NCBI GenBank assembly: GCA_964187785.1
Contig: OZ076409.1
Coordinates: 68,884,001 to 68,948,000, forward strand
Direction: 5' to 3'
Length of the DNA: 64,000 nucleotides
DNA from: Amphiscolops sp. MND2022
Lineage: Eukaryota
A program made the translations under genes and the position numbers. Shown piece after piece: positions 24,161 to 62,200 of this stretch. Each line of letters begins with the position of its first letter. Within the stretch, counting starts at the first letter, position 1. The notes beneath the pieces are model-generated. The model saw only the letters and a program-made list of their open reading frames with translations, was not told where the DNA came from and searched no databases.

Positions 24161-25861
24161 TTGACTCATCATTAGAAGATGAGGATTGGGAGCTTGATGG
24201 TGTCGGTTTGGTCTGAGGTTTCTGAGCTTTTGAATTGGGTTTATTGTCATTTGAGTCCTCGGGCCTAGTGAGTTTGGGTTTAAGATGCGCACCTGCACCT
24301 TGCCAACATCTTTCCTCCGGGTGGTTTTTTTTGCCACAAGTGCCACACTCCGGGTATGTTTTCTTCTGAGTCGATTTGCCTTGTTGGGCATCTTTCTCTT
24401 TTTTTTTCAATTTTTCGCAGTCCTTTACCATGTGCCCTTTTCCTTGCAGTAATTGCAAGTGATGTCCGACATTTGCCCAGTGGTCAGAGGGGTTTTGGGC
24501 TTAGCAGATGAGGAAGTCATTGTTGCCATCGGTAGGTCGTCTGACTCCTCAAGGGCGTTAAGCTCCAGTTCTCTCTCCAAATGAGCAACTTTTTCGTCAT
24601 ATGAGCCGTTTTTTAGTCTGGCCATTTTGATTGACCTTTTCAGTTTTGGTGGCAGTTTTGCGTACAGGAGACTGTCAATCATTTTCTGTGCGTGGTCTCC
24701 GAACGCCTTCTCGGCGCCTTGATTTAGTTCTTCAAGGAAATCAGGCAGCTCCATCGTATTAGGATCAAATACCAGACGGTGCCATTTATGTTTGGCGGTC
24801 GCCTGTGACTCAGGTTTGACGTATTTTCGTCGGAAAATGACTAGTACGTCTTCAAGGGTTTGCCGATTTGTCGAATTGATGTTTCTGAACGTCTGCAGAG
24901 CATTTTTCTTCAATAGTGAATGAAAATGTTTAATTTTCATCTGTTCGGTCATTTCTGGCTGCATCTTGATCATAGTGTGGAAAAGATCTTCGAACAGCTC
25001 AAATTTCTCACTTTTGCCATCAAAAGTCATAGTGTTGGAGTTGACTGGGCGTATTGTGAGTTGTTGAGCTGTTGGTCTATTCTGCATTGTAGTCAAGACG
25101 TCGGCCAATCTGGTAATGGGATCAGGATCTGCAGCTGTAGCGATTCGCTCATGCGCTGGGATCATCATGTCAAGGTTGATGTCCTCATAGGACTGATTGA
25201 GATGACTTCTTGATGGGATACGTCCTGTGAGAAACTCAGGAACCTGATTTGGAGATTCGTTGTCTCCTGTCACCATGTCATGAACGTTCAATTCAGTGTA
25301 ATCATTGTTTGACTGGTTCTCATCTTGTTCATTTCTCAAATTGTTCTTTGGGTTTAGATTTTGCTGAACTTCGGAAATTAGTTCCGGTCTCTCAGACGGA
25401 ATGTCCCATCCCTTTCTGGTCCCGTGTCCTGATCCGGCCATTATAACATTTTGGATTTGAGGAAGCACCTGAGTACTTATCGCATCACTTATGGCTCTCT
25501 GTATTTGGACACTCACAGAATTCATCATCTCGTCCATTTCTCGTGAAATGCGGGATTTTAATTCACTTGACAACCTGTTTATCTCAGCACTAGAGTTGCC
25601 TGTAACTGAATTGCGGTCACAATCGGTATTTGACCTAGAGTTAATATTTCTCTTGTTTCTACCTATGTTCCCATCCTCATTTTCGGATTCATTGCTTGCA
25701 AAGCTTCTAGATCTCCTGGGCAAATTTCTATTTAAACTGCCTTCTCTTTCTCTCGTGTTAAAATGGTTCTCGCCTAGCATGATATCTAAATTCTCGATGT
25801 CAGATAACATTTCAAGTCCCCTTGACTTTCTTGCCTTCTTCTGTTTTCTAGTGGTTGGCAT
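24153..25861 (-). pseudogene. gag: gag of element A (frameshift near 24440)
   Basis: Capsid-like region (FDGKSEKFELFEDLF...), zinc knuckles CNYC..GH..DC (split by the frameshift) and CGTCGKKNHPEERC; ends SKN* over AAAAAAC. Confidence 0.9.
25264..25275 (-). promoter_or_regulatory. Primer-binding site of element A
   Basis: TGGTGACAGGAG, complementary to a tRNA 3' end ...CUCCUGUCACCA (Leu-like by inference), directly after LTR. Confidence 0.85.
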
Positions 25862-27153
25862 TGAAACAGTTCCGAATTAAATAATGAAATAAACAACTCG
25901 CAAAAAACAACAGCGGAGCCGTTTGTAAGTCAATCTTTTCTAGTAGCGTCTCAAATGAATTGTGTCCCTTTCAGGCAAAGCACAGGTATTTATACTCCTG
26001 AGTGGGTGACACTCACATTTTCCACATGTTTCTAGTTGAGATTAGTATTTTGAGGAATGTAATGTACAACGTTTTGAAAAGTATTTAAGTTATTAAAGAC
26101 CTCCAGTCACATACTTTACATATCATCGAATAGCATCAAAGCGCATATTTTAACAAAATAACAATTGGGAGAATTCCTAACATATACATGTATGTCATAA
26201 CTGTAACATCAAACACTCAACATTCTGGTCGGCAAACATATCGGTATTACAAGCAACATATTCATGGAAATATTATCATTTCATTGTCAACAAATATCAT
26301 CAAGTGTTGATGGAATGCGAAACACGCATCATTGGTCTGTCATACTGACATGTGCCGACATGCGGCTGCTAATCCGCACAGGGGGAGGCAAGATCAAACA
26401 ATACATGTTCAGTCATCGCACCATTGAAACAAAGCGTACTCTAGTAAAGCCGAAAATGGCCAAATCCAAGTTAATAGTATAGCATCAAAGGAAGAGGGGT
26501 AAAAGCCTTATTCGGTTTTTGATCAATACTTGGTTTATTAAACCCACAAAGATCAACACTGGTGTTATTTAGCACTGAGTACACGTCCAGAGGGATTCCT
26601 GATTAATTTAACTAGCCATAAGTACAAATAACTCAGCGTTGACATATTTCACCAAGACGGCCGGAACCGGCCGTTTGACCAAGGCATAAAGTGAAGTGCG
26701 TCTATTCAGTCAATTGGCCTTACTCGGCCATTAACATATCAGAGTATTGAATTTGTAAATTGGAGCGTTGTGATTGGTCAGGACAGCGAGCTCAAGTGAC
26801 GCTTTTGGATTAGCACTGTGCATCACTCGAACTCACTTCCTTTACCGCTTTACAGTTGCTTCTATTCACGTAGCTTTCAATCTGATAATTTACATTCTAA
26901 CTGCACTTCAACACATAGTAACCCGATCTGGATTTTTCCAAATCGTATAATTTTAACAGACTAATACGTATACAAATATAAATGAGAAAACTTAAAAACG
27001 TCAATAAATGCAACAAATTCAAAACAACAAAATAGTGTAAAAGTTTGTTTAATTGTTCTTTTGACTAATAAATGGGAAGCGTGCCGGAAGCTGTCTCCTG
27101 TCCCTGTGTAGTCGTCGTGATCCTGGTGCCATCGCAGGCGGCAGCCTGCGACA
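25276..27153 (-). repeat. Element A 5' LTR (1878 bp)
   Basis: TGTCGC...CATGACA on minus strand; followed by PBS; homology to the other LTR stops exactly at 27153. Confidence 0.85.
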
Positions 27154-44053: not shown

Positions 44054-45154
44054 TGTCGGAACGACTGTCAGTACTAGTAGTTACTGGATTCAGTCTATTC
44101 CCTTCTCCATTAACGGAGGCAAACTGGTTGGTTAGCGTGAGGACTATGTTTGTAAGGTCTCCGATTTGCCTATTTATCTCGTTAAATCTTCGGTCAATGT
44201 CGTAATTACTACTATTTTGACGTCTAGTTAAAACGTCATCAGAGTCAAGGTCTACCATTTGTTCTCTAGACAAGAGTTCAGGGAAGCTGGTTTCACTTTC
44301 ATTATCACTAGTTCTATCCATGTTCTCAGTATCAATCTGTCTATTTCGACTACTTTGAGATCTGGTGATTACCATGAAAAGTCTGAAGTTTTAAGTTGAA
44401 TTGAAGTATTTTAATGTTATAACAACTATTGATGACTGGTAAGCAAGGTAGTAAGCAACCGGTTATATCAATGGTCACAATTCGTTAATGAGTTCGGTTT
44501 TACCCGACCGTGTCACTATCAAGGTGTGTTAGCACCTTTTCTCTTTCAGCCAATAACATTCGACTTGCTAATTACTATTTAATTGCACTTGACGACTGGT
44601 GGTTCCAGTCATGACGGGTGATGATCGGCGTTTAATTGTTCGTGTTTGATTTAGTATGACCGCAAGCACCAGTCATTTTAGCACTTAATTGTCTCAATTG
44701 CTCTTTAAACTGAGGCTTCACTACCGCGTGTTCTTATCATCATGGTGACTGATTCGATTATCGTTTGGAGGATAATTACTGCAGGACATTGTACAAATTG
44801 CTAATATGAATGAACGAAATGATTGAATATTCTGGTAATACTTTACATGTAATATAAAAAATGGATAAAGAACGGTTAAACGATGCACTATCACTGTGGA
44901 TGATGACTGATTGTTTCAGTCGTAAATATGGAAATGATTGAATATTTCAGTTTTAGCTTTTAAACGATGCACCATAACATAAACGAAATTTGGTATTGAT
45001 GACTGCTAGTTTCAGTCGTCGTATAGCCAACTGTGATATTTAGCTAATAAATTACTGCAATGTATTTACATGATGATCTATATTTTAGGGAGTTTGATGT
45101 AAGAACTAATGTTTTAGAGTTTATTTCATTTCTTCATGCTTGGCGGGCATGACA
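44054..45154 (-). repeat. Element B 3' LTR
   Basis: No differences from 58153-59253 seen by eye; preceded by PPT on the minus strand. Confidence 0.95.
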
Positions 45155-45168
45155 TTCCCCCCCTTTTT
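45155..45168 (-). promoter_or_regulatory. Polypurine tract of element B
   Basis: AAAAAGGGGGGGAA directly 5' of the 3' LTR TGTCATG. Confidence 0.9.
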
Positions 45169-45980
45169 GAGAGAGAGTGAGCTGTAGGGGTAGTAGGAAA
45201 GGTGAATGACTGAGGTGAGTGGTAGCAGGTGGTTAAGTTGAGAATTGAACAGCGGCTGAAGTGGCAATGCAAGGTAGATGGAAAACGCGTGGGTTGCAAA
45301 TGAAGCGGTTGAGAGCTATTCGGAAGCGTGAATGGCCAAGTCGAGGCAGGCAAATAATATGCAGTCGGAAGTTGGGGTTTATTTATAGTAACTGTCGGTC
45401 AGCCACGTCATCCGTGTGGTGCGCATATAGTGGAATGTTTGTTTAAGCAACTTTTCATCGATCATCGGCAGTTGATTGATTTGTTGCGTTACCATAGTGA
45501 AAGTCAGTTGAGTATTGTTGTTATATTTGGAGAGAATTTGAGCCTGTTCAAACTTGAAATCATTCACCTTCGTTTGGCAACCGTTGGTTTTGCTCATTCT
45601 TCCACAATAATATCAATATTGCTATCTATGGGTTTTTGCCAGGAAGTCTGGTATTTTGTCGGGTGTTGATTGTACTTTTATGAAGAGGGAATGGGGAAGG
45701 ATACTAGGCTTTTTTGGTGAGGAACCACGACTGCTTTTTTTCTGCTTCGTGTGAATAGCATTTGAAATTTGACGGAGGTAGATCCAAAATATGGTTCCTT
45801 GAATATCCAGTGGTACGCGGGTAAAACTGTTTGATAGGGAGGTTGGGTATCCATTGTGTATTGAGATAGGTGATCAGTCTATAACAACAAGAAATGGAAG
45901 AATGAGCTTTTGCAGTCGTGTCCTGTGTGCCTGTTATTATTCCCTTGGAACGTTGGAGTTTAATTATATTGTGAGCCAGC

Positions 45981-47164
45981 ATGTTGGAAGATGAGGCAAA
46001 TCAGTCGTTCGGGCCCGAATTGGAGGAGATGGTTACTGAAGTTGAAGATCAGATGGCCATGCAGGGGGCTGAGCTAGGTGGAGGCGGGCTGAATTTGCCC
46101 GATCTTATGTTGGAGACAAGTCAATGTTGCCAGTTTGCAACTCGCGTATCATCATTAAACATTGCTGGTTTGGGCGATTTATTGGACGTCGTCTTGTCCC
46201 AGGAATTCGGTAAGTGTGGCTCTCGTATTTTGCTTTTAGTGTGAGTAAGCGGTAATATCATCAGTTTGTCGTCTGCCCAAGATAGTGCCTGTAGTGTTAG
46301 GGAGTGTTTGGTCATAATCTTGTAACTAAGGGTATTGCGTTCTTGTAGCCGATGTCAACATGTCAGACGTGACCGACTATTTACGTCGGTATCGTGCTTC
46401 GGTTGCTGCTGGGACTGTTGGGAGTCCAGGAATAGATTCGGCGTCCATCCTTCATCGTCTAGATGCCTTTCTGTCATCTCATATGGGTAGGTTTATTCAC
46501 ATTTCTCTGGTATCAAAGGCTATTAGCTGTTACCCAGTTATTTGTTGTTAGCATTATAATCTAGGTTATTCGTAGGGGGGGGGCTTTTGTCCAAAGTACC
46601 AATTGCACGCCGTGTGTGGTTTGCTGTTCTATAATAAATTGATGATAGGGGTCTTCAGGCATTGAGTCCAAGGTAAGTTCTGTGAGTTGTGGATAACTTT
46701 GCAGATGCAAACATCAGAGCTGAGGTCGTCGAGGGGCAATTCGCTGAATTGTTCCGTCGTGTGGAGAAAGAGATACAGCATTGGGTGAAAGCTGCAGTAG
46801 AGTCCCGCCTCGGCCAACTGGGGACAGTGGGTGCCCTTGCTGTGGAGGAGTTCTTAAGTAAGCTGAAAGAGGCAATACAAGATCTGCGTCAAGCTCCCGT
46901 TGCTTCCCGGAGTGATGATGTGCCATCTCTCCCACGTTCTGTGGCCGGAAGCCTCTTTGGTGGAGAAGATCGTCGTGCGCCATCAGAGTCGGGTGTTCCC
47001 TCTGAGTTTGGTGAGAGAAGTGTTGTGCCTTCTGGGGGGACATCGTGTGCTGTTGCCTCCGCATCAAAGCCTGGTAAGAACTCTCAAAAGATCATGTGGG
47101 GGGTTTTAGTGGTAGGGTAGGACTAATTATATACAACATACTACTAATAGTTGGTGACAAACGC

Positions 47165-47195
<31 letters not shown>

Positions 47196-50100
47196 GAAGT
47201 TTTACGTGTGGTGTTGTGTGTTTTAGCAGGTCGGAAGCGTGCTGTTAAGACTCTCAAGCCTTCGTTTTTTGTGTCTGGGGTAGTGGGGACCTTCGTTGGT
47301 TTCCCCCGGAACAAACGGGTGGTCGATGGTTATGCAAGATGTCGTCTGTGCCGCGTCGATCTCAGTATTGCCGGACGTGGTCTGCACAACTTGTGGGACC
47401 ATTGGAAGGGACGTGAGCACACCCGGCTTGAGCAGCGTTTTCGGATCATGTCCAATATGCCTTTGTTGGACAAGTCCTGCAGGCCTGTGTCCTTGGAGGA
47501 GGATAGGAGGATTCGCGCCGCGAGAGTATCAGAGCCGCCTGTCATCCTAGAATCTGATGTGAAACTGACAGTGGAGGAGAGAATGGCGATAGAGCGCGAG
47601 GAGGAGGCTGCAGGAGCTAAGCCCGAGTTATCGGAGTCTAGTGCTTCGTACCTCTGGCTCTGTTGTTTCATAAGCAATTTCGTCGAGCTTCAAACGTTTC
47701 CGAGTGTGGTCCGAGCCATGGAGTCATGGGTCAGCAGTATGCGGGGAGAGCTGGTGTTCGCTGAGAGGGCGCTATCTTACCCGAAATGTCAGGTAATACC
47801 TTTTTTATCATTTTGTCTTTTTTTTTTTTTTTGTTTGAAGTTGCTATTGGTATGCCTGTGTCTCGTGGTGTTTGTACGTAGTTGGATAATGGGTTTGTCT
47901 TATTTTGAACAAAATATGCTTTACTATGTGGTGAGTGACATGGTTTTCGTTTTGTTGCAGAGTCTCGTGTTATACGGTCTCTATCCGTTCGTTGTCGAGA
48001 AAGTCAGTGATCTTCTCTCTTCTGGGGTGCGGTTTGGCTTACATGTCCGCACTGATGGGCCATTGAAGCGTGTGGACTGTCACATCTTCGCCTCTGTGAC
48101 TATCAAGGTTGTGGTTCTGGTTGCGATTCCTGGTGGCGCTGAGTGGGAACAAACCCTGCTGAGGATTCTTGTCTCCGTTCTGGCTTGTGTGGAGTCGCAT
48201 GCTGGTTTATGTGCGATTAGCGTAGGCGAGAATCTGCGTCTTGGGCGGGCATTGGCGAGCATTGCACATCCGATCATGCCTGTAGTGACTCGTCGTCTGG
48301 ATGTGGTCTGGTTGAGGGACTTGCTTCGCCGTACTTTCCTGCAGCACTTGAGTGGACTTGAACCCTTCTGCGTTTTGGAATATTTTCGGTTCCGGCTTTC
48401 TGCAGTCATCGGAGAGTCATCCTTCGACAATATGCCCAGACTTCGAGAGGTAATTCAAGCAGTATTTAGTCATTCTGGTTGGGGGTGGGTTGGTCTGGTG
48501 TGTATGTGTTTTCCTCGTTTGTGATGACTGGTACGCTTGGGTGTGGAGGCTTTTAGTCATGCACTGTATATAATTTTATGCTGTTTTGTTTTAGTTCGTT
48601 CGTGGTGGTGCTGCATGTTTCCGGGAGTTAGCAGTTCTGTGCACGGAAATTGTGGATCGGTGGGACGATCTCGGGGCATACTTTGGTGGTCACCGTTCGC
48701 AGACAGTTTCTGAGACCCGCAATATTGCAAGTATGGAGACGCAGGTCTTCAGTGATGCCATGTCCAGGCCGCGGTTCGCAGTGTTGAAGTTTCTCGCTGA
48801 GACAGGTCAGTATAAATGCTGTGCTTATTTCTGTGTCCGAGTACATCCACTCTATGGTTATTTTTCCTTTCTGCTATGTGGTTGATGAGTGGATTGTGAG
48901 GGAGTTAGGACGTTCGGGCTGGTAGGGTGTGTTGTTGAGTGTTTCAACATGTTGGTCAGGGATCATCTGTATGTTTCAGTTGTTGCCAAGTGTCCCCGTT
49001 TGTGTTCTGCTGGGCGGGATCGGAACCTATGGTTTGAGCGTGAGCTGGCTGCTTTCCTTCGGGAGTTATTGTCTCTAGTGGTCGAGTCTGCAACAATACC
49101 ACCCGATTTCGAGGTACTTGCCGTACTGAAGATGCGACTGGGAGAGAGTGAGCCAGTGAACAAAGCCCGATTTGAAGTGTTGTTTGGTCAGTACTTCCGG
49201 TTCGACGTTGTCAGTCAAAAGTCGTTCTTCTACAAAGAAGTACAAAATTTCCTGAGGGCTATCTGTGAAATGTGCATCTGCGACTATGATCAGGGGTGGG
49301 TGAAGCATCTGAGCTTATTGCCGTTGGATCCTCATGCGATTCAGCTGATGTCCATGGATCGATTGACGGACATACTCGTGGGTACGCTCTCGGTGTTAAG
49401 CTTCGGTGATCTTTGCAGTGGAGACCAGGGGGCCATCGTCATTCAACAATATCGGGAAGTGGTCACCTATTTTCAGCGCCGTTGGGAGTCCAGTGTCTCG
49501 GGGGTGCCGGTCATTGACGACGCCGTGTCCTTGTGGTTGTCATACCCTTCGTGGGACCGGTGCCAGGAATTCCAGGGCATAATGGAGATTCTGTTTGTGG
49601 GGATGCTTCATGACCCATATGTCGCCAATTTCCAGGATGTGGGAAACACTGCTCTTAGTGATGGCATCATGTTGTCCAGTCTTCACATAGTTCGGAGCTG
49701 GATGTCAAGTGGGTTTAGTGGGCATTCACGCCGCTCTATGATTGGATTTGTCAGGCACTGCAATAATACTGACATGCAGGTTTCTCGTCTGTCCGATGTA
49801 GCAAGGGCTATTCCCTGGGACCAGCTGGTCAAGAGGGGTATTGATGAACTACTGGATCGCTGCCTGGGTGTTCTGGAATCGACTGGTGGTCTCCCAGCTC
49901 GTCCTGTTGTCGACAATTATAGGTCTATAGTGTGTGATCAGTTGCGCACAATGGATTCGAGCCCAATTGCTCTTCATCGGAGTCCTGGGCGAGCAAGGCT
50001 TTCTGTGTCGCAAGCGCCTAAGTTGCAGGCTGAAGTCGTGTTACCAACAGAGGGCCCGAGTACTTCAGCTTCAAAACGTAAATCTGCCTGTAAGACGTCT

Positions 50101-50259
50101 GGAAGCAATCGTGGTCAGAGAACGGGAGGGAAACCAGGCAAGAAAGGAAAACGTACATTAGCTACTGTTGAAACTGAACCTGAGTCGGCTGGCGGGCGTT
50201 CTTTCACGTTAGAGGAGAGCAGTGATGAGGAAGATGGTAGTCGTTCCAAAGAGTATTAG
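45981..50259 (+). CDS. Antisense 7-exon accessory gene of element B, ~1092 aa: BED-type zinc finger plus inactive hAT-transposase-like protein
   Basis: Predicted exons 45981-46209, 46349-46486, 46705-47073, 47230-47792, 47961-48449, 48595-48805, 48980-50259. All introns GT-AG with T-rich acceptors and compatible phases; total 3279 nt, no internal stop. Motifs CRLC-x16-H-x5-H, RWDDLGAYF, LPLDP; basic NLS-like tail (KPGKKGKR). Confidence 0.8.
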
Positions 50260-52142
50260 TTATCTTCCAGGTTTGTCGCAGTAATCAGATTTTGCTACTT
50301 GGCTTGTTAATTTGTTTGCAGAACTTTTTACATGTTGATTACATATTGATATTGTGTTTTGATGTTATGCTGTGTTTTATTATGGCCTGAGTTGGTCTTA
50401 CATGATGTAGTAATTTAGTTAGATGGTTTCTGCCGTCCAAAACTTTTCTCTGTTTTTCTGTAGTACTGGGCAGTTAGGGCGTTATTAGCGGTTTGTTGCA
50501 TGTAGGGAAAAAAAATGAATTTTTGCATGTGGTAGTGTTCAGTCTGACTGCATGTACTCGTCATTTTTTCTTCGTTGGTGTAATGTAGTCTAGGAACGAT
50601 TTGTTTTTCTGTAGTGCGTGAAATCTAGGGTTGTTTTAAACGGTTTCTTCTTCGCGTGTTTTTGGAGTATCTATGTGTCCATGATGCTAAACTACCTCTA
50701 TCGTTCTTGGGTGGTTGTATCGGGTTACCCATACCTTGACTATAGTTTCATGCGGTGTTTCGCTCTATTTGTTGCGTCGTCTTAAGTGAATTTTTCCAGC
50801 AAGTTCATGATGGTTATGGTGGTCACCGCGGCAACCACCGACATAAAAATTGTTCACGCGCCAAGCTGTGCTGTGCATGGTACTCGAAAGTCAAGTCCTC
50901 CTCTTCGTTGTTCGTGAATGCTCGAGAATGGTAACGAGACAGGATGACTGTGGCTTTCGGTCCTTAGCACCGCGCCGCGAGGTACGTGACTGAGCAGCTC
51001 GCTCATTTCCAAGGCTGAATTCCCAAGGGGTGGATCCTTGGCTTGATACATGACTTATTAGGTATGCATGTAAGTGTTACGTGTTATAAGTTCTAGGGAC
51101 TACTTTACATGTATGTTGGTGTTTCGATTTATTACATGCAGCGGTCTATGTTTGCGACGTCATCATCGTTGATGTGTGTCCTGGGACGTCATCACACGTG
51201 ATGTGTGTCGTCAAGATCGCGAGTTCTTACGTTATGTTAACTGCAGTGGTACCAAGTTGTTAGGCTGGGAAGGATGGACATGTTTAGGTTTCCTCGTTAA
51301 GTAGCTTTTTGGGGCCGCGTACTCCTTACTCTTTTCCCTAAAGAGGCAAAGCCTTCGCATCCTAGGTTACGTGTAAGGGGCCGGGCGATCATTGTTTTCG
51401 GGAGTTGGTAAGTTCTTGTTCGTACCGGCGTTCTGTTAGTTTCTGGTGATTAGTTTTCAGTTTAAATGTTCAGTTCATTGGGAAAGGTGAATTCCCGTCG
51501 GAACCACCTATACAAAACTAACACTGAATCCAGTTGCTAAAGAGCAACCTTCATCTGTATGTATGACCAACCACACAAGCACGCTTTTGACGACGCACCC
51601 ACACAGCCAGAACTATGAGTCTAAAGCGAGATAGGTGGGGTATTGGTTATGTTGTCCTAACGTTTGCCAGGCAGCAGATCATCATTGTTAGTTTGTTGCG
51701 TTTGTAGGGAACGTTGTTTTCGTTCACGTTTCGTTAGTTATGCATCAAGATTTTGCTAAGCAAATTGCTTTAGTTCCGGTTGTGGATGTAGTAAATTTGG
51801 TGCGAATTGAATAAATTATCGTTCACACTTTTGCGCGTTACATGTACTTCCGGACCGCGAGTGTTGGAATGATAGGCTTGTGCAGTCGTTACTTTACTAT
51901 TTGGTTGTTTCGCTAACAATTGGTGCTGATAGATTAGATAGTTTACACAGCGACGGCGGAAGTGAACGGTCGTTTATTGAAGTGTTTGCTAGGTTGTTCA
52001 GAGCTTTCACTATTGTTTGCTGGATGCTTGGTGTACTAGGGTGTAATTGTAAAACAATTACCTTTACGGTCAGATAGAAAGGCTGTTGGTGACTGTTGTT
52101 AGCAGTCATTGGTTTAATAAGTGTGATTATGGGTGGGTGTTT

Positions 52143-55100
52143 TTATAGGTTTCTGTTTTTCAGAAGCAGCTGTTGAAGCGAAGGCGTTCCATGTAATTCG
52201 TGCATTAGGAAATCGGGGTACGTGGTAGGTTTTGGGTTGTGTCTGAGCCCGTATCGAGACATGGTGTTTCGCGATGTCGCTGGAGGGCAGTCGTTTGTTT
52301 GGCGTTCGGAATTGTTCATGCTAACATTATCCGGTTGTGGTTCTTGTGTTTCAGCTCGGCTTTCAGGTATGGAAATGTTTTGATCAGGTTCTAGGCTATG
52401 GCGTTCATAGTATATCATTCCATGGTCAGCATGTAGTTCTTCGAAGTCCGATTGTTCAGGTATTGCTTGTTGTGGTTGTTCGTGGACGTGATCGGGTAGG
52501 TGGTTGTCGAACAACTCCTGCTCGTTGAGGGCGTCAGGATCCTCATAGTATTGTGATGTATCGTCTTGAATGTCTTCAATTGGTGCGTTTGGTGTAAATG
52601 GGCGGAGCCTCATTCTGTGGACGCATTGGGTGCGAAGAGTTCCAATCTTACGTATAATGTAATTTGAATTGGACAAGACTTTTACCACTTTGTACGGGCC
52701 TTCCCACTTGAATTCCTTGAAAGGAATTTTGTCAGATTGTTGAGACAGTCTTTTGTTTAGCAGAAAGGTGAAATCATTTACTTTCAGAGGTGAAGCTTGC
52801 GCTTTTCGGTCGTAGTAATTCTTGTATTTGTGGAAGGCTTCGATTATGTTGTCATGTGTTTGTTGGAATTTTTTGTTCATGTTATCTAGTATTCCAGTGA
52901 CGTCAGTGGTGTTGCGTTGTTCAGTTAATGGATGGCCAAATTTGACGTCAAGAGCATTGAACGGAATGCGTCCGTGGAAAACTTCAGTGGGTGTGCATCG
53001 GATAGCCTGGTGGTAGGTTGTGTTATGGGCCATCACGGCCATGTTTACGTATTTGTGCCATTGTGGTGAATCGGCTGAGACGTTGATTTTGAGAATTTGT
53101 TTTAGTTTTTGGTGTGAACGTTCAACCATCCCAATCGTTTGTGCGTGCTTTACAGAGGCGTGTTCGATTTTTATACCGGCAGACTCCATCAGAGCGGTGA
53201 GTAGTTGAGATGTGAATGTCGTTCCTTTGTCAGTTAAGATTGTTTTGGGTACATACGAGTGCTGCGTGAAGATTTGCATGAGTGCTTCGACGACCGACTT
53301 CGTGTCCGGTTTACGGATTGGTATTGCGGAGAGGTACCTAGAAAAGTAGTCGCATGCAGTGAGGATGTGTGTGAATCCGTTGGAAGGTGGGAGTTCACCG
53401 ACTAAATCGATTTCTAGTATGTCTTCTGGTCCGTTGCAGGGGTCGTATATTTGTTGGAGTGGTGGTGTGATTTCAGCTTTCCGGATTGGTTTTGAGCGGA
53501 TGCAGTCCTGGCAGTTCGAGACGTATTGCAGTACCAGTTCAGAGAGGTTTGGTGAGTAGTACCTTTTACGCAGTTCGTGGAGCATTTTGTTACAGCCAGG
53601 GTGACCTTGCAGAGGGTCATCATGCAGGGATTGAATGATTTTCCGAATGGTTTCAGAGGGGGTGACAATTTGTTTACACTTAATTTTACCTGTACCATCG
53701 AAAAAGTTCCTGTACAAAACGTTGTTCACTACTTCAAGTCTTTTCTTGTTTTTAACTAGTTTTTGGAAAAACTGACTTTCAAAGTTCACATGATTAGGAA
53801 GGGTTTCCTTTTGGTTCAAAATTCTAATCATGCGTTGGATGTCAAGGTTTACGGCTTGGTCCTGGATGATTTGAAACTCCCCATTGGGGCATACCTGGTT
53901 TACCACGTTGTCATGAAGCTTTCGCCTGAATCGGGTGAACGTCATCTCGTCATGCTGCCCTGTGATGATGGGTGTGATCTGATGACGGATGGTTTCAATC
54001 CTCTCGCGAAACTGTCCACTCGATTCGTCACTGCATATGGGGACCTGGTCCAGTATGGCGTTGATGGCTTCATTTTGTTTGGTGGTGGTGGTTTGTTGGT
54101 CATCAGGTATGTATTCTTCTTCTTCTTCGTCCTGCTTCGGTGTTCGTGACGCCAGATCGATCTCGACGTGGAAGACTGGTATCTCGTCGTTGAGTTTGAG
54201 GTGGATTCTCTCCTCCGGTCGTATGTCTAGACGAGACAGGTAGTCTGCAGCAGGATTCTCGGTTCCGGGAACATGGGCAAGTACGAATTCAAATTGAAGC
54301 GTCTGATCGCAGTAATTCCATAGCTTCGGTGGAATTCGTTTGGACTGGAAGAAACGGGTTAGTGCTTTATTGTCCGTCATTACGATTGTTGGTTTCTTGA
54401 CACCCCAGAGTATGTGTGCAAATTCGTCGAATGCAAAATGCATTGCCAGGAATTCTTTTGCATACATAGTAAGTGACATTTGGCCCTCCGTGAATCGTTG
54501 GGATCCAAATGATACTGGTGCGTACGTCTTCATTGGTCCGTCGTTAGTTTCGGTGTAGTCTTCTATCAGGAGGACATATCCTGCCGCATGCTCGCTGGCG
54601 TCACACATTATAACAAGCTGTTTATCGGGTAACGGCAGACGCAGCGAAAGTTTCGCGGCTTTGGCAAGGTTTTCATTAATCTCGAAGATAATGTCCTTTT
54701 GCTGCTGGGTCAGCTGGAATTTGACGTCTTTTTGAAGTAGTTTGTACAGTGGGGTGAGTTTTTCTGCTAGGCGTGGTATGTACTGCCTGTAGAACTGGAC
54801 GAACCCGATGTACCTTTGGAGGGATTTGACTGATGTGGGCAATTTGATCTTCTTGAGGAAGTTGTCTATCTTGTCTTCGAGTGGGGCAACACCCTTTGAT
54901 GTGATGCTTCTTCCGAGGAAGTCGATCTGTGGGTGGCCAAACGCACATTTTGACATCGACAATTTCAGTCCTGCTTTTTGGATTTGTTGGAACACAGCTT
55001 CAATGTTTGACAGTAGCTCATCTACAGTGTGGGCAGCAATCCCAATGTCGTCGACATATTGGGCACATTTATCCGCTTTCACCAGTGCGTCGACGTATTC

Positions 55101-56948
55101 TCGCACCGTGCTGTTGAATGCTGATAGGGATCGATTGAGTCCTTGTGCCAGTCGTAGATAAGCAAAGGTTCGACTTCCAAAATTAAATGCCAAGAGTTGT
55201 ATGGATTGTTCGTCCGCCATCTGCAAACAGTGGTACGCCTGCGAACAGTCCAGCTTGCAGAAATACTTCTTCCCTGCCATGTGCTGGGCGGCGTCGGCGA
55301 TGGTGGTGACTGGATGATTATGTTGGTTGTAATCATTTTTCAAAAGGTGGTTGATTCTGCGCAGGTCTACAAGAATGCGAAGTTTCCCATTGGGTTTGCG
55401 TTGAGCAAATATTGGTGAGGAATACTTGCTGTATGGCAACGTCGTGATTATCCCGTACTCTTGCATCAGCGCTAGTTCGACGAGCAGGTCGTCTTTGAGA
55501 TTTGTGGGTGTGGGCAAACTCTGTGCGTAAACTGGCTCATCATGCTTCGGGGTAAGTTTAATTTTGAAATCGGTATTGATGCCTATGTCAAGGCGGTGTC
55601 TGGCGAACACATTGTTATACTTCACAAGGAGGTTCTCAATCTGTTGTCGTTCGTGCTCATCCAGGATTGAGTTTTCCCATTTGAAGCTGGCAAGGAACTC
55701 CTGGCGTTGTTTATCGTCTGCTGTTGGGTCCAGTTTTTCTTCTTCACGGAGTTTAGTGATTTCGTCGTATATCCGTCTTTCAATGCGGTTCAACTTGGAC
55801 GGGTCGTCACAGGTCTCCGGTGTTGGGTACCATCGACGGTTGGTTTCGGTGCCAGGCTCTTGGAACAGCTGGTTTAGTACATTATCAGCTTCGTCTGGGT
55901 ATTTGGTGATCAGTGTCAATTGTTCGTTTGACATCGGTTGTAGGTTCTTTGCCTGGTTGGGGGTCATTATTCTGAATGTGGCCACCGTTGTGTTCGGGTT
56001 AAGGGTGATTGTGTGGCAGGTAAGGTTGGTGATCTGGACATGGCTTTTCATCTCAGTGATTTGTGTTAAGGCGGGGGACACTAGTAGTTGGGTCTTTCTT
56101 TCAAAGGCTGGAAAGGTTTCTACAGTGCCCTGGATTGTCCCGAGGTCCTTTTCTGCTAGGACGGGGACAATGATTTGATGGTCCGGTTGTATGACTGTTT
56201 TCTGCGTCGTTCGTAATTCGATCATCTGAATTTTGTATCGTCCTCGTTCTGGTTTCAGCTGCAGGGTAATATCCGGGAACTTGACTACGTTGTTGGCAAG
56301 GTCAAGTGTCACCGAATACTTTTTGAAAAATGACATTCCAATCAGGATGTTACCCATGGTTGGGAGAATCATGAAGGTTTCCTCGAATACTTTACCTCCG
56401 ATGAAGAAGCGAAGTAGTACCTGTTTCCGGACCGGGACGATGCTCCCGTTTGCAATTTGGACTTTGAAGTCCGGTGCTGGGTACTCTTCGAGGAGTGCAG
56501 CTGGGTGTGCAGACAGGATTCGTCTGAGTTCGTCTTCTGACATGGCACTTCTTATTGCTCCCGTGTCGAGGAGTCCATGGTTTTCGTATGCTCTGAATTG
56601 CAATGGGACGTATAACATCTTGTCCTTTTTGTTTAACTGAAGTGTTGCTGTTAACACCTGGATCGCCACGTCCTTCTTTCGGTTTGTTGTTTTCTTTGTA
56701 CAGTCAGTCGTCGTAGTCAAGTTAGAGTGCTGTCCGTCTTCTGTCGGTTGTAATTTCACATCCGTTGGTTCGGATGGGGAGTTCGCTTCGTTGTTGGTTG
56801 TCTCGTGGGTAATTGAAGTCATGGGTTTCTGATCCTGCCGAAGATCAGTTGTCCATTTTTTGTAGTTTTTTGTGTAGTAGTAGTTGTTTGTGTTGCGCAC
56901 TTTGTTATTGTAGTGGTCGGTCGAATGACGTGGCTTTAGAAGTTTTTT
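52143..56948 (-). CDS. pol: pol polyprotein of element B (protease, RT, RNase H, integrase), expressed by -1 frameshift
   Basis: 1585-aa open frame (52143-56900) that stays open back to the slippery site: LLDTGA, QYVDD, CDAS, LHDDPLQGHPG...CQDC, IDLVG/TDKG/VERS, WEGPY. Confidence 0.96.
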   Translation of the reverse strand, partial: KKLLKPRHSTDHYNNKVRNTNNYYYTKNYKKWTTDLRQDQKPMTSITHETTNNEANSPSEPTDVKLQPTEDGQHSNLTTTTDCTKKTTNRKKDVAIQVLTATLQLNKKDKMLYVPLQFRAYENHGLLDTGAIRSAMSEDELRRILSAHPAALLEEYPAPDFKVQIANGSIVPVRKQVLLRFFIGGKVFEETFMILPTMGNILIGMSFFKKYSVTLDLANNVVKFPDITLQLKPERGRYKIQMIELRTTQKTVIQPDHQIIVPVLAEKDLGTIQGTVETFPAFERKTQLLVSPALTQITEMKSHVQITNLTCHTITLNPNTTVATFRIMTPNQAKNLQPMSNEQLTLITKYPDEADNVLNQLFQEPGTETNRRWYPTPETCDDPSKLNRIERRIYDEITKLREEEKLDPTADDKQRQEFLASFKWENSILDEHERQQIENLLVKYNNVFARHRLDIGINTDFKIKLTPKHDEPVYAQSLPTPTNLKDDLLVELALMQEYGIITTLPYSKYSSPIFAQRKPNGKLRILVDLRRINHLLKNDYNQHNHPVTTIADAAQHMAGKKYFCKLDCSQAYHCLQMADEQSIQLLAFNFGSRTFAYLRLAQGLNRSLSAFNSTVREYVDALVKADKCAQYVDDIGIAAHTVDELLSNIEAVFQQIQKAGLKLSMSKCAFGHPQIDFLGRSITSKGVAPLEDKIDNFLKKIKLPTSVKSLQRYIGFVQFYRQYIPRLAEKLTPLYKLLQKDVKFQLTQQQKDIIFEINENLAKAAKLSLRLPLPDKQLVIMCDASEHAAGYVLLIEDYTETNDGPMKTYAPVSFGSQRFTEGQMSLTMYAKEFLAMHFAFDEFAHILWGVKKPTIVMTDNKALTRFFQSKRIPPKLWNYCDQTLQFEFVLAHVPGTENPAADYLSRLDIRPEERIHLKLNDEIPVFHVEIDLASRTPKQDEEEEEYIPDDQQTTTTKQNEAINAILDQVPICSDESSGQFRERIETIRHQITPIITGQHDEMTFTRFRRKLHDNVVNQVCPNGEFQIIQDQAVNLDIQRMIRILNQKETLPNHVNFESQFFQKLVKNKKRLEVVNNVLYRNFFDGTGKIKCKQIVTPSETIRKIIQSLHDDPLQGHPGCNKMLHELRKRYYSPNLSELVLQYVSNCQDCIRSKPIRKAEITPPLQQIYDPCNGPEDILEIDLVGELPPSNGFTHILTACDYFSRYLSAIPIRKPDTKSVVEALMQIFTQHSYVPKTILTDKGTTFTSQLLTALMESAGIKIEHASVKHAQTIGMVERSHQKLKQILKINVSADSPQWHKYVNMAVMAHNTTYHQAIRCTPTEVFHGRIPFNALDVKFGHPLTEQRNTTDVTGILDNMNKKFQQTHDNIIEAFHKYKNYYDRKAQASPLKVNDFTFLLNKRLSQQSDKIPFKEFKWEGPYKVVKVLSNSNYIIRKIGTLRTQCVHRMRLRPFTPNAPIEDIQDDTSQYYEDPDALNEQELFDNHLPDHVHEQPQQAIPEQSDFEELHADHGMIYYERHSLEPDQNISIPESRAETQEPQPDNVSMNNSERQTNDCPPATSRNTMSRYGLRHNPKPTTYPDFLMHELHGTPSLQQLLLKNRNL

Positions 56949-58474
56949 GGCTGGCTAGATGATGGTTCAATGAAGTCCTGTTGGTAGTATTCATCACTGA
57001 TTTGTTGTTGTTGGTCCCCTGGTGCAACGTCATTCATTTCATTTGCTGGGTAAGGGCTGTTGTGTGCTCTTCTAAAGTCACGTCGGAAATCCCTGTTTTC
57101 AGTTGTGGTTTGCCTGTTGTAGGGCACACTTCCGTAGGCAGAGGTTTGAGGTATTCTATGCCTACAGTCTTTTGCAGAATGGCCTGTATATCCGCAGATT
57201 TGGCAGACCAGTTTGGCGTTGTATTTCGGTTGTGTTTCTGCGTGGTTGTTGTTCTGTTGTTCGGGCTTTTTCTGTGCCTGGGAGTTGTTGTTACCTGCTG
57301 CCTCGTCTCGCTGTCGTTTTCGGCATTCTGCCCATTTGTGTCCGTATATCGCACAGTATCTGCAGTTGCCGTCGAATTTCCTTTTGATTGTTGGTCGATC
57401 AGTTTCATTTCGTTTCTGGGTGACTGGCTTGTTCGGGACTTCTTGCGTCTGAATAGCCTGATTGAACGGTTGGAGCAGTTGTTGGTTTGGTAGTAACTGG
57501 GCATATTGACATCTTCTCTGGACGAATGTTTTGATGTCTTCAATGCTGGCATTGTGTTTTCCTGCAATTGCCAGTTCGTTTTGGAGCTGGATGGGTAATT
57601 TGGCAAATAGGAAAGTCTGGACGATTTCCTGTGCTTTTTCGCCATAGGCTTGTTTGGCAATCTTTTTGTAATTGGCGAGGAAGGTACTGAATGACTCAGT
57701 AGCTGGATCGTATCGTAGTTGGTCGAATTTGAACTTCGAGACTTCTGAGAGTTCTTCCTTTGCGTATTCTTTTTTGAATGCCGTCAGTATATCTCTCAGT
57801 GTCGTTTCTGTTGTGATTGTTAGGGTTTGCCAAAACTCAATTGCATCATCCCTGAGAAGACTCTGGAAGTAGTTGAGTTTTTGTTCTTCGGTTAGTTTGT
57901 GGGCATGTGGTCGTAAGTGGTTGAGCAATAAATGCTCGAATTCATTGTATTTGTCTCGGTTTCCCTTGAATAGGGGTACTTGGGTCTGCAGAATTTTTGG
58001 GTGCGTCAAGGTTTCCCCCATTGTACTTCGGAGATGGTGGATTTCCGTCATCACATCTGCTATTTGCGGCATGCTTTCGTCACTCCTTGGTGTCCCGTTG
58101 GGTGGTGTTGTTCGGGATCCTGATGGTCGTGGATTCGAGACTCCTGTCACCATGTCGGAACGACTGTCAGTACTAGTAGTTACTGGATTCAGTCTATTCC
58201 CTTCTCCATTAACGGAGGCAAACTGGTTGGTTAGCGTGAGGACTATGTTTGTAAGGTCTCCGATTTGCCTATTTATCTCGTTAAATCTTCGGTCAATGTC
58301 GTAATTACTACTATTTTGACGTCTAGTTAAAACGTCATCAGAGTCAAGGTCTACCATTTGTTCTCTAGACAAGAGTTCAGGGAAGCTGGTTTCACTTTCA
58401 TTATCACTAGTTCTATCCATGTTCTCAGTATCAATCTGTCTATTTCGACTACTTTGAGATCTGGTGATTACCAT
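56936..58474 (-). CDS. gag: gag of element B, 512 aa
   Basis: Capsid-like region (VPLFKGNRDKYNEFE...), two CCHC knuckles CRYCAIYGHKWAEC and CQICGYTGHSAKDC; starts inside the 5' LTR. Confidence 0.95.
   Translation of the reverse strand: MVITRSQSSRNRQIDTENMDRTSDNESETSFPELLSREQMVDLDSDDVLTRRQNSSNYDIDRRFNEINRQIGDLTNIVLTLTNQFASVNGEGNRLNPVTTSTDSRSDMVTGVSNPRPSGSRTTPPNGTPRSDESMPQIADVMTEIHHLRSTMGETLTHPKILQTQVPLFKGNRDKYNEFEHLLLNHLRPHAHKLTEEQKLNYFQSLLRDDAIEFWQTLTITTETTLRDILTAFKKEYAKEELSEVSKFKFDQLRYDPATESFSTFLANYKKIAKQAYGEKAQEIVQTFLFAKLPIQLQNELAIAGKHNASIEDIKTFVQRRCQYAQLLPNQQLLQPFNQAIQTQEVPNKPVTQKRNETDRPTIKRKFDGNCRYCAIYGHKWAECRKRQRDEAAGNNNSQAQKKPEQQNNNHAETQPKYNAKLVCQICGYTGHSAKDCRHRIPQTSAYGSVPYNRQTTTENRDFRRDFRRAHNSPYPANEMNDVAPGDQQQQISDEYYQQDFIEPSSSQPKNF
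56942..56948 (-). promoter_or_regulatory. -1 ribosomal frameshift slippery heptamer A_AAA_AAC
   Basis: Lies one codon before the gag stop (CCA AAA AAC TTC TAA); pol is in the -1 frame; same heptamer ends gag in element A (24156-24162). Confidence 0.85.
58141..58152 (-). promoter_or_regulatory. Primer-binding site of element B
   Basis: TGGTGACAGGAG directly after LTR end ...TCCGACA; identical 12-mer to element A. Confidence 0.9.
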
Positions 58475-59253
58475 GAAAAGTCTGAAGTTTTAAGTTGAAT
58501 TGAAGTATTTTAATGTTATAACAACTATTGATGACTGGTAAGCAAGGTAGTAAGCAACCGGTTATATCAATGGTCACAATTCGTTAATGAGTTCGGTTTT
58601 ACCCGACCGTGTCACTATCAAGGTGTGTTAGCACCTTTTCTCTTTCAGCCAATAACATTCGACTTGCTAATTACTATTTAATTGCACTTGACGACTGGTG
58701 GTTCCAGTCATGACGGGTGATGATCGGCGTTTAATTGTTCGTGTTTGATTTAGTATGACCGCAAGCACCAGTCATTTTAGCACTTAATTGTCTCAATTGC
58801 TCTTTAAACTGAGGCTTCACTACCGCGTGTTCTTATCATCATGGTGACTGATTCGATTATCGTTTGGAGGATAATTACTGCAGGACATTGTACAAATTGC
58901 TAATATGAATGAACGAAATGATTGAATATTCTGGTAATACTTTACATGTAATATAAAAAATGGATAAAGAACGGTTAAACGATGCACTATCACTGTGGAT
59001 GATGACTGATTGTTTCAGTCGTAAATATGGAAATGATTGAATATTTCAGTTTTAGCTTTTAAACGATGCACCATAACATAAACGAAATTTGGTATTGATG
59101 ACTGCTAGTTTCAGTCGTCGTATAGCCAACTGTGATATTTAGCTAATAAATTACTGCAATGTATTTACATGATGATCTATATTTTAGGGAGTTTGATGTA
59201 AGAACTAATGTTTTAGAGTTTATTTCATTTCTTCATGCTTGGCGGGCATGACA
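58153..59253 (-). repeat. Element B 5' LTR
   Basis: 1101-bp direct repeat of 44054-45154, followed by PBS. Confidence 0.95.
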
Positions 59254-62200
59254 TCGAGGCGTCCGTCCAAGTTGCACAGAGGTGACCTGTAAAACCTTGG
59301 AAATTTTAAAATCCTTTTGTGTGAACGTTTTGCGAAGTGCGGAAGACAAATGCAATACAATGTTTCCCTAGAAGCTCCGGGAAAAATTTCTCTGAAAAGA
59401 CTGTACAGAAAATCTTTTAACAACCGTAAAGATCCTTGCAGATCTGTAGTTGTCCCTACGTAGCAGTGGCACGGTCTTTACAGATCGGGAAAAAGGGGAC
59501 TGAAGTTTTTAGAAAATTTTATTCGTTTGAAAAAAGTCTCATAGTGTCTACCGAAAAACCCGGAAGCAGAACCTTTAATTTTGGCAACGATTATCCAGTC
59601 TAAAACATTTTCAAACTTAAAAGTTAACGTGATACGTTTTCACTAAGGAAAAGGTTTTTTTCGAGACAAAGTCGCCCAGTGCCGAGAAAAATCGTTCGTC
59701 ATTTTTACAATTCTCATCAGTCCCACAAAAATAACGAAAGATGTTACTAGTAAGACTTTTGTAACGACAAGTTCTCACCATGTCGTCATTTCGCCATAGA
59801 GCCGGAGGAACCTACAACATTGTTGTTTGCCCGGGACAGGCGCCCATAGCTATAGATCCATTTTGCCTCCTTCGGGTAAAAATCGTACTGTCAGAGGAGG
59901 ATTCCGCCTCGTGTGGAGCACTCGCTGTTCTTTTCCAGTATGTAACTGCTATCCATAGTGCAAACTACGCTTTTCCGTCGAAATTGTCACTCAGACGGCC
60001 TTTAAAAAATGAAGTGGTGGTAAAGATGAACTTCCATGACAGGTTATGGTGAAAATAGTAGCTCACGAGCTAAATTTGTAGGTAAATCGGTATTTCGTCG
60101 GTATTGCACTGCACAAATCACATGACAAGATGACGATTAAAGGGGCACAAGCACGGGTGCTTGATTAAGCACTTATGAGACGCATTTTAAGTATTTGCAA
60201 CAATTACTAGCAACATGCTAATGCAAGTAACGGTGAAAAGAGTCTAAACAATTAGCGAGTTTGAGTTCGTTTCTATATTTTCTCAATACGCGGTTTTACT
60301 TCTTTGGGTCTCTCTTTTGTTACGTGTCGTTCTGGGCCTTTTCAATTTGGCCGGCAGGTCTTTTTTAAAGACACGGAGTCTTCTAGCGGAATATGCTTCC
60401 AGTTGCCAAATTCCAGTTCACTGCTCTGTCCTTCAACGAATTTTCCAGAAATAATCACAGTTTGCCTGTCGACGATAGGCCGTCATTACATGTATAACGA
60501 TTTTTCAAAACAAAATATCTACATGGAACCAAAATTTTGTTTGAAATGTTCCAAAAAATTTGTTCCGGAAAACCCTTCGAAACTGTTTTTTTTTTCGGTA
60601 ACTCGCATAGTGCCGAGAAACACCAAGGACACTTTACGCACGCAAAACGCTTTGCGTCTACTCAAAATCAACTTTTTTGGAAATAATTGTTTCGATACGT
60701 TCATCAGAATCAACATTTTTAGGAGGCTCTTTATGCTCGCTGGTTCGAATAAAGGAACTGGAATGAAGAGTATTAAGAAAGAATGAACAAACTAGAAAAT
60801 GGTAGAAATAGAAGTGAATGGAAAATTGAGGTCCAGGGTATGAAGTTTTGGAGTTTTTACTATCAACATATACCTGCCCCTTGAACGGGTTCAACAACTT
60901 GGTGGAGGTCCTGCAAACACACAGGGTAAAAAAAGTATTTGTATGAATTAGTGAAAAAGGCATTTTTTGAGAAAAGAATCTATACTAAGCTTTGAATAAG
61001 TTGAATAGTTTGTTTGCAAAAAATCAAGGGCACCCTTCGGGTAAAGAAATTCCAAAAAAGTCTCGTTGTGCCAAAAAATCCCAATTTTTGGCTCTTCAGT
61101 GTTCCCTGTACCGTCACTTACACGCAGAGGACCACATAGAGAATTTTATATTAACCTACAATTCAAGTGATATATGATTTAAAGTGAGGTTTAAGAACTG
61201 TTTATAGCAGAAACAGAATTCTGCTGGTGGAGAAAAAAATTGAATTCCTCAGGCTAAAATAACAGAATACGAAAAACAATTCTCCCGTTTTCTGATATAA
61301 CTTTTATAGCAATTTTAAAAATGCGACCAGTCTGAATGTTCCACGTTATACGCAATACTAAGAGTTAAAAACTGAGTATGCAATTTACTGACGTCTTATC
61401 CAAATTAGAAGCATATCTGAAGTTTTATTTTTTTTTCAACTGAACAATTTAGTTGGGGCTGTTCTTTTTCTATACAACTGAGATTTGAAGATGTCCGATT
61501 TGTTCAATTGGCGTTTTTTAAGTGTATACCAAAATTATTGCAGTGCTGCTGCGCCATTTTTCAGTTTAAGTTTTACTTTTGGTTTTATTTGCGTATGTTT
61601 TTTCACCTTCGGTGCAACTTACTAATTGGATGAATGATACCTTTCAAAAGGTGGCATAAAAATTGTTATATAGAATGTGGTATAGGAAATGTTCATATCG
61701 TGAACTCTTTTGGCATTTGCTCCAAAGAATGATTTTTGAAATGCCGCTAGACGCGTTTCTGAAGTTCAATTTGAGGCCGTGTACTTAATGTCAAAATGCG
61801 AGAGATTTATATTCACATTTTTAACTTTGTGCCAGTTGCTTTCATAGCCAACGGAATATTAATGTAGTACAAAAGTTAACGCTTTTTTTCGCCTTTTGAA
61901 AGGTGTTCATTCATGTCAATTTTTCTTCCCTCACTCTTTTCTACATTAAATCTCCAACTTGCTTGATCGATTTTAACCCATTTTTGAAAACAACCCATTT
62001 TTGAAAACAATGTTGAAGATTCAACTCAGAAAAGAGTGAAAAATGTTGTTATAAATGCTCCAATTTCGAGAGAAACAAAAAACCTAAGTTTCAGCATTGA
62101 AATTTTATAATTATCAAAGTCTTAGACACCTCGAAAAACTAACTATTAACATTATTTTGAATTTTCTGCTCAAAATGAAAAATTCGAAAGAAAGAAAGGA

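Follow-up and report, generated by a model that had tools for sequence, protein, structure and literature searches.

A hAT-Like Antisense Accessory Gene and a Candidate LTR Dyad in a Gypsy-Type Retrotransposon of Amphiscolops

1. Introduction

An intact Gypsy-type LTR retrotransposon of Amphiscolops sp. MND2022 carries, antisense to gag and pol, a gene whose predicted protein is built like a hAT transposase but is not an active member of that group. We suggest, with slightly better than even confidence, that a captured, disarmed hAT transposase is the retrotransposon's putative DNA-binding regulator, acting through dyads in the element's own LTRs. The window, that is, the whole stretch of 64,000 nucleotides that was analysed (contig OZ076409.1, positions 68,884,001 to 68,948,000), contains this element, here called B, and a second one, A. 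Their features are collected in Table 1.

Table 1. Features of elements A and B, in positions of the window.
Feature	Position	Strand	Remarks
Element B	44054..59254	−	15.2 kb, intact Gypsy-type LTR retrotransposon; 5-bp target duplication TCGAG
3′ LTR, element B	44054..45155	−	1102 bp, TG...CA; 0 mismatches with 5′ LTR
Purine tract, element B	~45156–45175	−	just inside 3′ LTR
5′ LTR, element B	58153..59254	−	primer-binding-site-like TGG start just inside
gag frame, element B	56936..58489	−	starts within 5′ LTR
pol frame, element B	52143..56954	−	1603 codons open: protease, RT, RNase H, integrase
Antisense gene, exon 1	45981..46209	+	predicted from splice signals and frame only
Antisense gene, exon 2	46349..46486	+	predicted from splice signals and frame only
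Antisense gene, exon 3	46705..47073	+	3′ end backed by one relative, P0115
Antisense gene, exon 4	47230..47792	+	BED-type finger C283-x2-C286-x16-H303-x5-H309 (47340–47420) and following region
Antisense gene, exon 5	47961..48449	+	RNase H-like core, then first insertion-domain helices
Antisense gene, exon 6	48595..48805	+	helical, presumed insertion domain
Antisense gene, exon 7	48980..50259	+	helical; presumed Glu/hATC-equivalent part near Y880–D886 (49618–49638)
First-Asp position of B	48048–48050	+	~R463; V462-R463-T464
Second-Asp position of B	48225–48227	+	~G522; V521-G522-E523
CxxH position of B	48294–48305		R545–V548; model 114 = Hermes 267
Dyad	44061..44081; 58160–58180		2 mismatches; 7 bp inside LTR end
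Dyad	44592..44612; 58691–58711		exact
Dyad	44656..44676; 58755–58775		1 mismatch
Dyad	44903..44923; 59002–59022		exact
Dyad	44999..45019; 59098–59118		exact
Three dyads between antisense gene and pol end	50944..52109		50944 and 51869, 2 mismatches; 52089, 1 mismatch
Element A	~12800–27153		second, decayed Gypsy element
5′ LTR, element A	25276..27153	−	second copy 10941–12804; 1805/1860 aligned bases identical
Antisense gene, element A	15946..18720	+	homologous to that of B; broken by stops and frameshifts
Exon pieces, element A gene	16045–16563, 16717–17202, 17296–17512, from 17584	+	

2. The Retrotransposon and Its Antisense Gene

Element B has the features of a Ty3/Gypsy element, namely TG...CA LTRs, a target duplication, a primer-binding site, a purine tract, and gag followed by PR-RT-RH-IN. 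The DTGA, YVDD and integrase motifs are found in pol, with the domains in Gypsy order. Since the two LTRs show no mismatches and the 5-bp target duplication is present, element B is taken to be a very recent insertion. A search of the window for tRNA genes found none; a 7TM receptor gene is present in the window.

The antisense gene lies on the plus strand in the interval from pol to the 3′ LTR, with seven predicted exons, six GT-AG introns and an open frame of 1092 codons. The stretch flagged in the earlier note (47961..49900) corresponds to exons 5 and 6 and most of exon 7. The C-terminal tail of the protein, encoded in exon 7, is of low complexity, first basic and then acidic. No homologue support was found among the relatives for exons 1 and 2 and most of exon 3.

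The relatives bear on the splice sites as follows. Identity over exon 5 is 62–83%, versus 20/190 residues where nine close relatives read through into the intron. In 39/46 rows the exon-5 donor is followed by Val, and in 9/11 its acceptor is preceded by Gln. In relatives P0115 and P0076, introns 3 and 6 are spanned as in-frame inserts, and relatives P0180 and P0236 read straight through the exon 5/6 junction. Judged from these alignments, conservation across the relatives ends at the predicted splice sites. The maintained reading frame, and the keeping of exons over introns, support a function of the antisense gene.

Relatives are found among unnamed proteins of genome assemblies. Exon 7 finds 33 clusters, whose 324 member sequences are not copy numbers, several assemblies possibly being pooled; exon 5 finds 10 clusters; and a profile of exons 4–5 finds 198 clusters at 50% identity, of which the 150 listed are all of at most 440 residues, i.e., exon-sized. 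Many of the database relatives are fragments, and the family diverges very fast. Atlas likewise gives unnamed matches for exon 7, at 0.77–0.81. A word-index search with exons 4–5 among proteins of 712–2030 residues gave no match, nor did scans for related loci in viral contigs and JGI metagenomes. The link to a retrotransposon is seen in 2/2 elements in the window, 260 relatives being known from protein records only. By these comparisons, the family to which the antisense gene belongs is large and diverged, and its introns are conserved.

The second element in the window carries a gene at the same site and on the same strand, relative to pol and LTR, as that of element B. The two elements are 57% identical in RT and 27% in gag. 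Three intron positions and their phases match between the two genes, the third donor of A being weak and chosen by alignment. The A and B finger profiles align at a probability of 96%, bridging proteins being included on the B side; the exon-5 profiles align at 54%, and at 93% after two bridging proteins are added. Direct comparison of A with B gives z 3.4 for exon 5 (1/500 shuffles), z 5.1 for exon 6 (0/500) and z 4.9 for exon 7 (0/60). A single relative, P0220, bridges both types, matching A at E 4e-37 and B at E 1e-11. On these profile and shuffle comparisons, the A and B antisense genes are homologous along their length. Because the copy in element A is broken, the argument rests on B and the relatives.

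3. The BED-Type Finger and the RNase H-Like Core

The earlier note had it that a finger and a hAT scaffold are kept. For the finger this is borne out: in an alignment of 41 of the 43 exon-4 proteins, the ligands C283, C286, H303 and H309 are kept in 31/36, 35/40, 34/40 and 32/41 rows, respectively. The finger of B fits the pattern CX2CXnHX3-5(H/C) expected of the BED fingers of hAT transposases, a signature described in PMC7471704. The Pfam zf-BED profile matches the finger weakly, in 3/42 members at E 0.027, and Atlas assigns it to BED/zf-C2H2_12 at 0.83, which is a lead only.

For the scaffold, the claim stands by structure and for exon 5 only. The exon-5 model was computed from 66 sequences, namely A, B and 64 of the 75 exon-5 proteins; the other 11 rows, being fragments or laden with introns, were left out. 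It has a pLDDT of 84 and an RNase H-like fold, in the order helix-b1-b2-b3-a-b4-a-b5-helices, with strands b1 to b3 of antiparallel type. In a Foldseek search that gave at least 500 matches, ranks 1, 2, 4 and 5 are taken by chains of Hermes (E 1.7e-3 to 3.2e-3, probability 0.99–1.00); no match among these at least 500 has an E below 0.001. In a VIA comparison with 48,161 chains, Pelota has a Z of 8.3, and many RNase H-like folds have Z 6–8 over model residues ~21–112. Hermes has Z 6.6–6.9 and an rmsd of 7–8 with 151–154 residues aligned, model residues 1–163 corresponding to Hermes 152–350; for 2bw3, 106 residues of model 1–114 align with 152–267 at an rmsd of 3.7. The Hermes Z is thus below that of Pelota and level with those of other RNase H-like folds. 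Among the matches listed, Hermes (five entries) alone covers the whole model. The structural comparison with Hermes yields a whole-model match for exon 5, at a Z that does not rise above generic RNase H-like folds. The model has the hAT arrangement of a core followed by a helical insertion, of which it covers the start only.

The exon-7 model has a pLDDT of 39, and neither the catalytic Glu nor the hATC domain is placeable from such a model. No Pfam match to hATC was found in 28 exon-7 members; part of exon 7 resembles the hATC motif, but by eye only. Sequence and profile searches of the PDB and Pfam scans gave no hAT family, the weak zf-BED match being the sole one from Pfam. In sum, the modelled structure points moderately to hAT, and the sequence methods do not. 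Since a BED finger and an RNase H-like core follow each other in the hAT order, hAT ancestry of the antisense protein is likely.

4. The Catalytic Positions

The catalytic triad of Hermes consists of D180, D248 and E572. All three residues are needed for activity (described in PMC2533014), and hairpin formation by hAT transposases needs CxxH, of which H268 is part in Hermes (PMC4763223). Hermes registers on B were taken from the range ends of the VIA alignments and from strand positions, to within one residue. The second-Asp position of B was placed by the topology of the fold.

The peptides quoted in the earlier note are present as given: FGLHVRTDGPLKR at 48033–48071 and LCAISVGE at 48207–48230 in B, and FSIEFEDSGTDRLMFLRYW at 16786–16842 and IVACSGCS at 16960–16983 in A. 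At the first-Asp position, D or E occurs in 0/44 B-type rows within a three-residue window, the 44 being those of the 57 aligned B-type rows that are readable at both windows examined. The column of Asp465 of B, in the turn after this position, is acidic in 26/44 rows. Among A/C-type rows, A included, Glu occupies the first-Asp position in 8/9 (7/7 in another alignment). The second-Asp column has D or E in 35/57 B-type rows (E 23, D 12, S 10, G 9), and an acid is found in its three-residue window in 40/44; B has Gly522 and then Glu523. The A/C types have Ser or Ile at the second-Asp position, with an acid in 0/9.

As the earlier note had said of the two copies, neither CxxH nor ERxFS is found at the equivalent places: C/DxxH occurs in 0/63 rows, B reading R-L-D-V and A reading R-F-E-S, and ERxFS occurs in 0/28 (27 of the 33 exon-7 matches, plus B). 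Near the expected Glu, a site that is itself unplaceable at the pLDDT of the exon-7 model, D or E is found in 24/27 rows at the N883 column and in 25/27 at D886. Residues 434–980 of B contain none of CxxH, DxxH, DGA/DNA, FS(L/I)xxDE and ERxFS.

The alignments indicate that the canonical triad and CxxH are incomplete in A, B and every counted row, and that the A and B types have lost different acids. A loss of the catalytic residues in both copies, as first claimed, holds for the first Asp of B and for CxxH, but A has a Glu at the first position. To say that the triad is gone is right in that the set is incomplete, but too strong given the acid at or near the second position in most B-type rows. 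At least one of the two Asp sites is unoccupied in every row, and CxxH is missing from all counted rows, which makes transposase activity improbable; we conclude that the antisense protein very probably has none.

5. A Dyad Motif in the LTR of Element B

The LTR of element B contains nine copies of AYGACTG, above the best degenerate 7-mer in 200/200 shuffles. As a dyad, AYGACTG-N7-CAGTCRT with at most two mismatches, the motif has 13 matches in the window, 13/13 in element B: five in each LTR and three in the 3′ non-coding region, six of the 13 being exact. The chance level in the window is 0.6 matches, an expectation that concerns a pattern picked after the fact, and 0/100 shuffles reach the observed count. 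When the LTR is shuffled and searched anew for its best dyad or pair, the observed count is reached in 0/100 (5-mers), 1/100 (4-mers) and 0/60 cases. No dyad is found in the 48.8 kb of the window outside element B, which include another Gypsy family. In the LTR and 5′ non-coding region of element A no motif or dyad is enriched (189/200, 100/100 and 60/60 shuffles reach the observed values).

In each LTR, the four best dyads are located at 136–563 bp from the end on the U3 side, upstream of the gag opening. The half-sites are fixed, while spacers and flanks vary from copy to copy (three spacer bases recur in two of them), an arrangement characteristic of sites for a dimeric DNA-binding protein. 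Each of the three exact LTR sites has one ATGACTG and one ACGACTG half, and both orientations occur. An RNA hairpin was considered and set aside, since the stems are fixed in sequence with only the spacers varying, and since the asymmetric form is seen in either orientation, with the G-U wobble switching strands accordingly.

The BED domains of Hermes bind cooperatively to a quasi-palindrome, as described in PMC10368747, and DREF and ZBED1 are described as binding palindromes (PMC7471704). We put the chance that the dyad is the putative target of the antisense protein at about even; the binder could instead be a host factor.

6. The Proposed Mechanism and Its Alternatives

The mechanism that we propose is as follows. 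An ancestral Gypsy element would have captured the gene of a hAT DNA transposon, in antisense, between pol and the 3′ LTR. The DDE/CxxH set would then have been lost and the BED finger and folded scaffold retained; the proposed reason is that element B has its own integrase and that a second nuclease would be harmful. The protein would serve as an accessory factor that binds specific DNA sequences as a dimer or oligomer, comparable to DREF/ZBED or Spm TnpA, and by this analogy it probably works as a ZBED/TnpA-type factor. The AYGACTG-N7-CAGTCRT of the LTR and 3′ non-coding region would be its likeliest target in element B. Bound to the dyad, it may activate the element's own transcription or shield the element from silencing. 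Because the gene is antisense to the genomic RNA, its introns would remain unspliced in retrotransposition and be inherited.

The earlier note had suggested a non-catalytic, repurposed function. The finger, the scaffold, the incomplete catalytic set and the kept frame are consistent with it; the repurposing is what we infer from them. Besides the limits of the fold matches given above, several observations count against our explanation: the family is not connected with hAT by any sequence profile, each type retains acids of its own at or next to the catalytic positions, and element A has no dyad. A wider reading is that an entire animal Gypsy radiation domesticated a hAT transposase and made it a transcription factor of its own. 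A catalytically disarmed BED protein, encoded in antisense by a gene with introns, would bind subfamily-specific LTR palindromes and drive or shield the element, finger and motif co-evolving. Taken as a whole, this wider reading falls a little short of an even chance.

The protein might instead act after transcription, on dyads in the cDNA, by tethering or importing the integration complex, by steering insertion, or by repressing the element to limit its copies. A dyad next to the LTR end and dyads at both ends of the internal region would suit such a role, as would the basic C-terminal tail, and for the plant antisense ORFs both nuclear import and regulation are proposed in PMC7264820. However, the terminal dyad carries two mismatches, and the four best dyads per LTR are placed like enhancer sites, upstream of the gag opening; we regard a post-transcriptional role as unlikely.

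A regulator acting through its own LTR dyads has also to be weighed against a protein that functions by protein contacts, in counter-silencing, in a SUMO-ligase-like role, or as a decoy poisoning complexes of the host or of hAT, the dyad then being an unrelated host-factor site. A-type LTRs without a dyad, despite a common gene family, would be explained in this way; the family is diverging very fast, and ZBED1 is described as having SUMO ligase activity (PMC7471704). Against this stand the conservation of all four finger ligands and the limitation of the dyad to element B, with none elsewhere in the window, and a function through protein contacts seems quite unlikely to us.

The persistent acids raise the prospect of a non-canonical nuclease or metal site, formed, for example, by the strand-4 acid and the acids near Y880–D886, or of descent from another DDE superfamily with an insertion domain and a different register. 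The acid beside the second position in the B types, the acids near the expected Glu and the first-position Glu of the A/C types speak for it. Yet no acid at either Asp position is common to the A and B types, the second-Asp column of the B types is mixed, CxxH is missing from every row, and the young, intact B has Gly522 and Asn883; we judge such a site improbable. A nested hAT transposon, decaying as a functionless hitch-hiker, would account for the broken copy in element A and the fragmentary state of many database relatives, nested insertions being frequent in general, but it is very improbable, for the frame of B is fully open, its exons are conserved far above its introns, the site and introns are the same in two distant Gypsy lineages, substitutions remove the active site yet preserve the fold, and of five candidate pairs of flanking inverted 12-mers none has an 8-bp duplication (0–3/8 matches).

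7. Comparison with Known Systems and Significance

Antisense ORFs at this location are already known from plant and fungal Gypsy elements, and transposase-derived regulators are known as host genes and as Spm TnpA. What appears to be new here is a hAT-like antisense accessory gene in a Gypsy element, together with a candidate LTR dyad. Like Hermes and other hAT transposases, the protein has an N-terminal BED-type finger, a helix leading into an RNase H-like core, and a helical insertion after strand 5; unlike them, B is without the first Asp, CxxH and ERxFS, and there is no detectable sequence similarity. In contrast to hAT transposons, the gene has no TIRs or 8-bp duplication and is carried by an LTR retrotransposon.

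The position of the gene, antisense and between pol and the 3′ LTR in 2/2 elements in the window, is that of the aORF-3R genes. Examples described in PMC7264820 and PMC11963269 are found in maize Grande, rice RIRE2, Retand (TRP28) and fungal Boty. These sources describe aORF-3R as conserved across copies and propose a nuclear or regulatory role; both also note that aORF-3R shows no similarity to other transposons and that an origin by nested insertion is unsupported. The gene found here differs in being large and multi-intron, in residing in an animal genome, and in being structurally traceable to a DNA transposase.

The protein is putatively like Spm TnpA and VANDAL VANC, as far as these are described, in being an element-encoded, non-catalytic, sequence-specific self-regulator. 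Spm TnpA is described as transposase-derived, the DNA-binding part of the transposase of its own plant DNA transposon (bioRxiv 10.64898/2026.08.24.746577). Here, unlike in Spm TnpA, the whole scaffold of a foreign class II transposase lies inside a class I element; neither "retrotransposon" nor "LTR" appears in the text of that preprint. DREF, ZBED1 and other ZBED proteins share the BED finger and hAT scaffold and, according to PMC7471704 and PMC10368747, bind palindromic sites and rarely keep enzymatic activity. These are host genes, whereas the B gene is mobile, multicopy and inside a young LTR element. Other captured accessory domains are reported in PMC13547354; the words "antisense" and "transposase" are both absent from the text of PMC13524379. 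Among the openly accessible articles that our searches covered, we found none that describes an LTR element whose accessory gene derives from hAT.

Where the antisense accessory genes of LTR elements come from, and what they do, are posed as open questions in PMC7264820 and PMC11963269. The family described here offers an antisense accessory gene with a structural pedigree, that of a DNA transposase, and a reason why its introns survive. The candidate binding site in the LTR makes both binding and trans-activation directly testable. If our reading is true, one transposon class would have been domesticated by another, giving an LTR-element antisense accessory gene a traceable origin, and the route from transposase to transcription factor, known from host domestication and from Spm TnpA, would gain a further branch in which the captor is an unrelated mobile element.

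Gag Frames and the gag–pol Junction

In element B, the intact Gypsy-type LTR retrotransposon, the gag and pol frames overlap by 19 bases, and an A-AAA-AAC heptamer lies at this overlap on the minus strand. As judged from the sequence, the heptamer is likely a −1 frameshift site. In both element B and the decayed Gypsy element A, the gag frame starts within the 5′ LTR and its reading frame traverses the primer-binding site; 111 codons of the gag frame of B are present again in that element's 3′ LTR.

Non-Coding Sequence, Repeats, and Neighboring Features

The 3′ non-coding region of B contains 10 matches to ACATGYA-type words, a count reached in none of 200 shuffles, with some of the matches overlapping because the words are partly self-complementary. 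Across the entire window, there are 41 such words. The same region carries a GACGTCATCA...GATGTGTGTC unit twice.

There are further A-type pieces. The one to the left of element A, which has an LTR, a primer-binding site, and a gag fragment, is not followed by a purine tract; another is a partial LTR. Repeats of about 120 bases with GGGGGACCCTTT cores are dispersed in both orientations, and the family includes a 58-base inverted pair. A foldback or MITE-like element may end in repeats of this family.

Positions of features in the window
Feature	Position	Strand	Remark
gag/pol overlap, B	56936-56954		
gag frame, B	56936-58489		
gag frame, A	24425-25876		
3′ non-coding region with word matches, B	50260-52142		
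Twofold unit, B	51153; 51182		
A-type LTR and gag fragment	10586-12804		
Partial A-type LTR	28414-29890		inside 2.7-kb tandem duplication
Two short frames; non-coding sequence	12731-13549	minus; plus	between left LTR and antisense gene of A
Dispersed repeats	3579-6065; 27791-30667; 33176-33296; 40424-41058	both	
Inverted pair	5460-5517; 40862-40919		
Rhodopsin-family 7TM receptor frame	36444-37565	minus	single exon; Pfam 7tm_1, E 1.4e-9

Relatives of the Antisense Gene

Two related proteins, P0220 and P0230, represent a third type that bridges A and B. Intron 4 or intron 5 is missing from some relatives among P0220, P0230, P0216, P0180, and P0236; therefore, intron content differs among the subfamilies.
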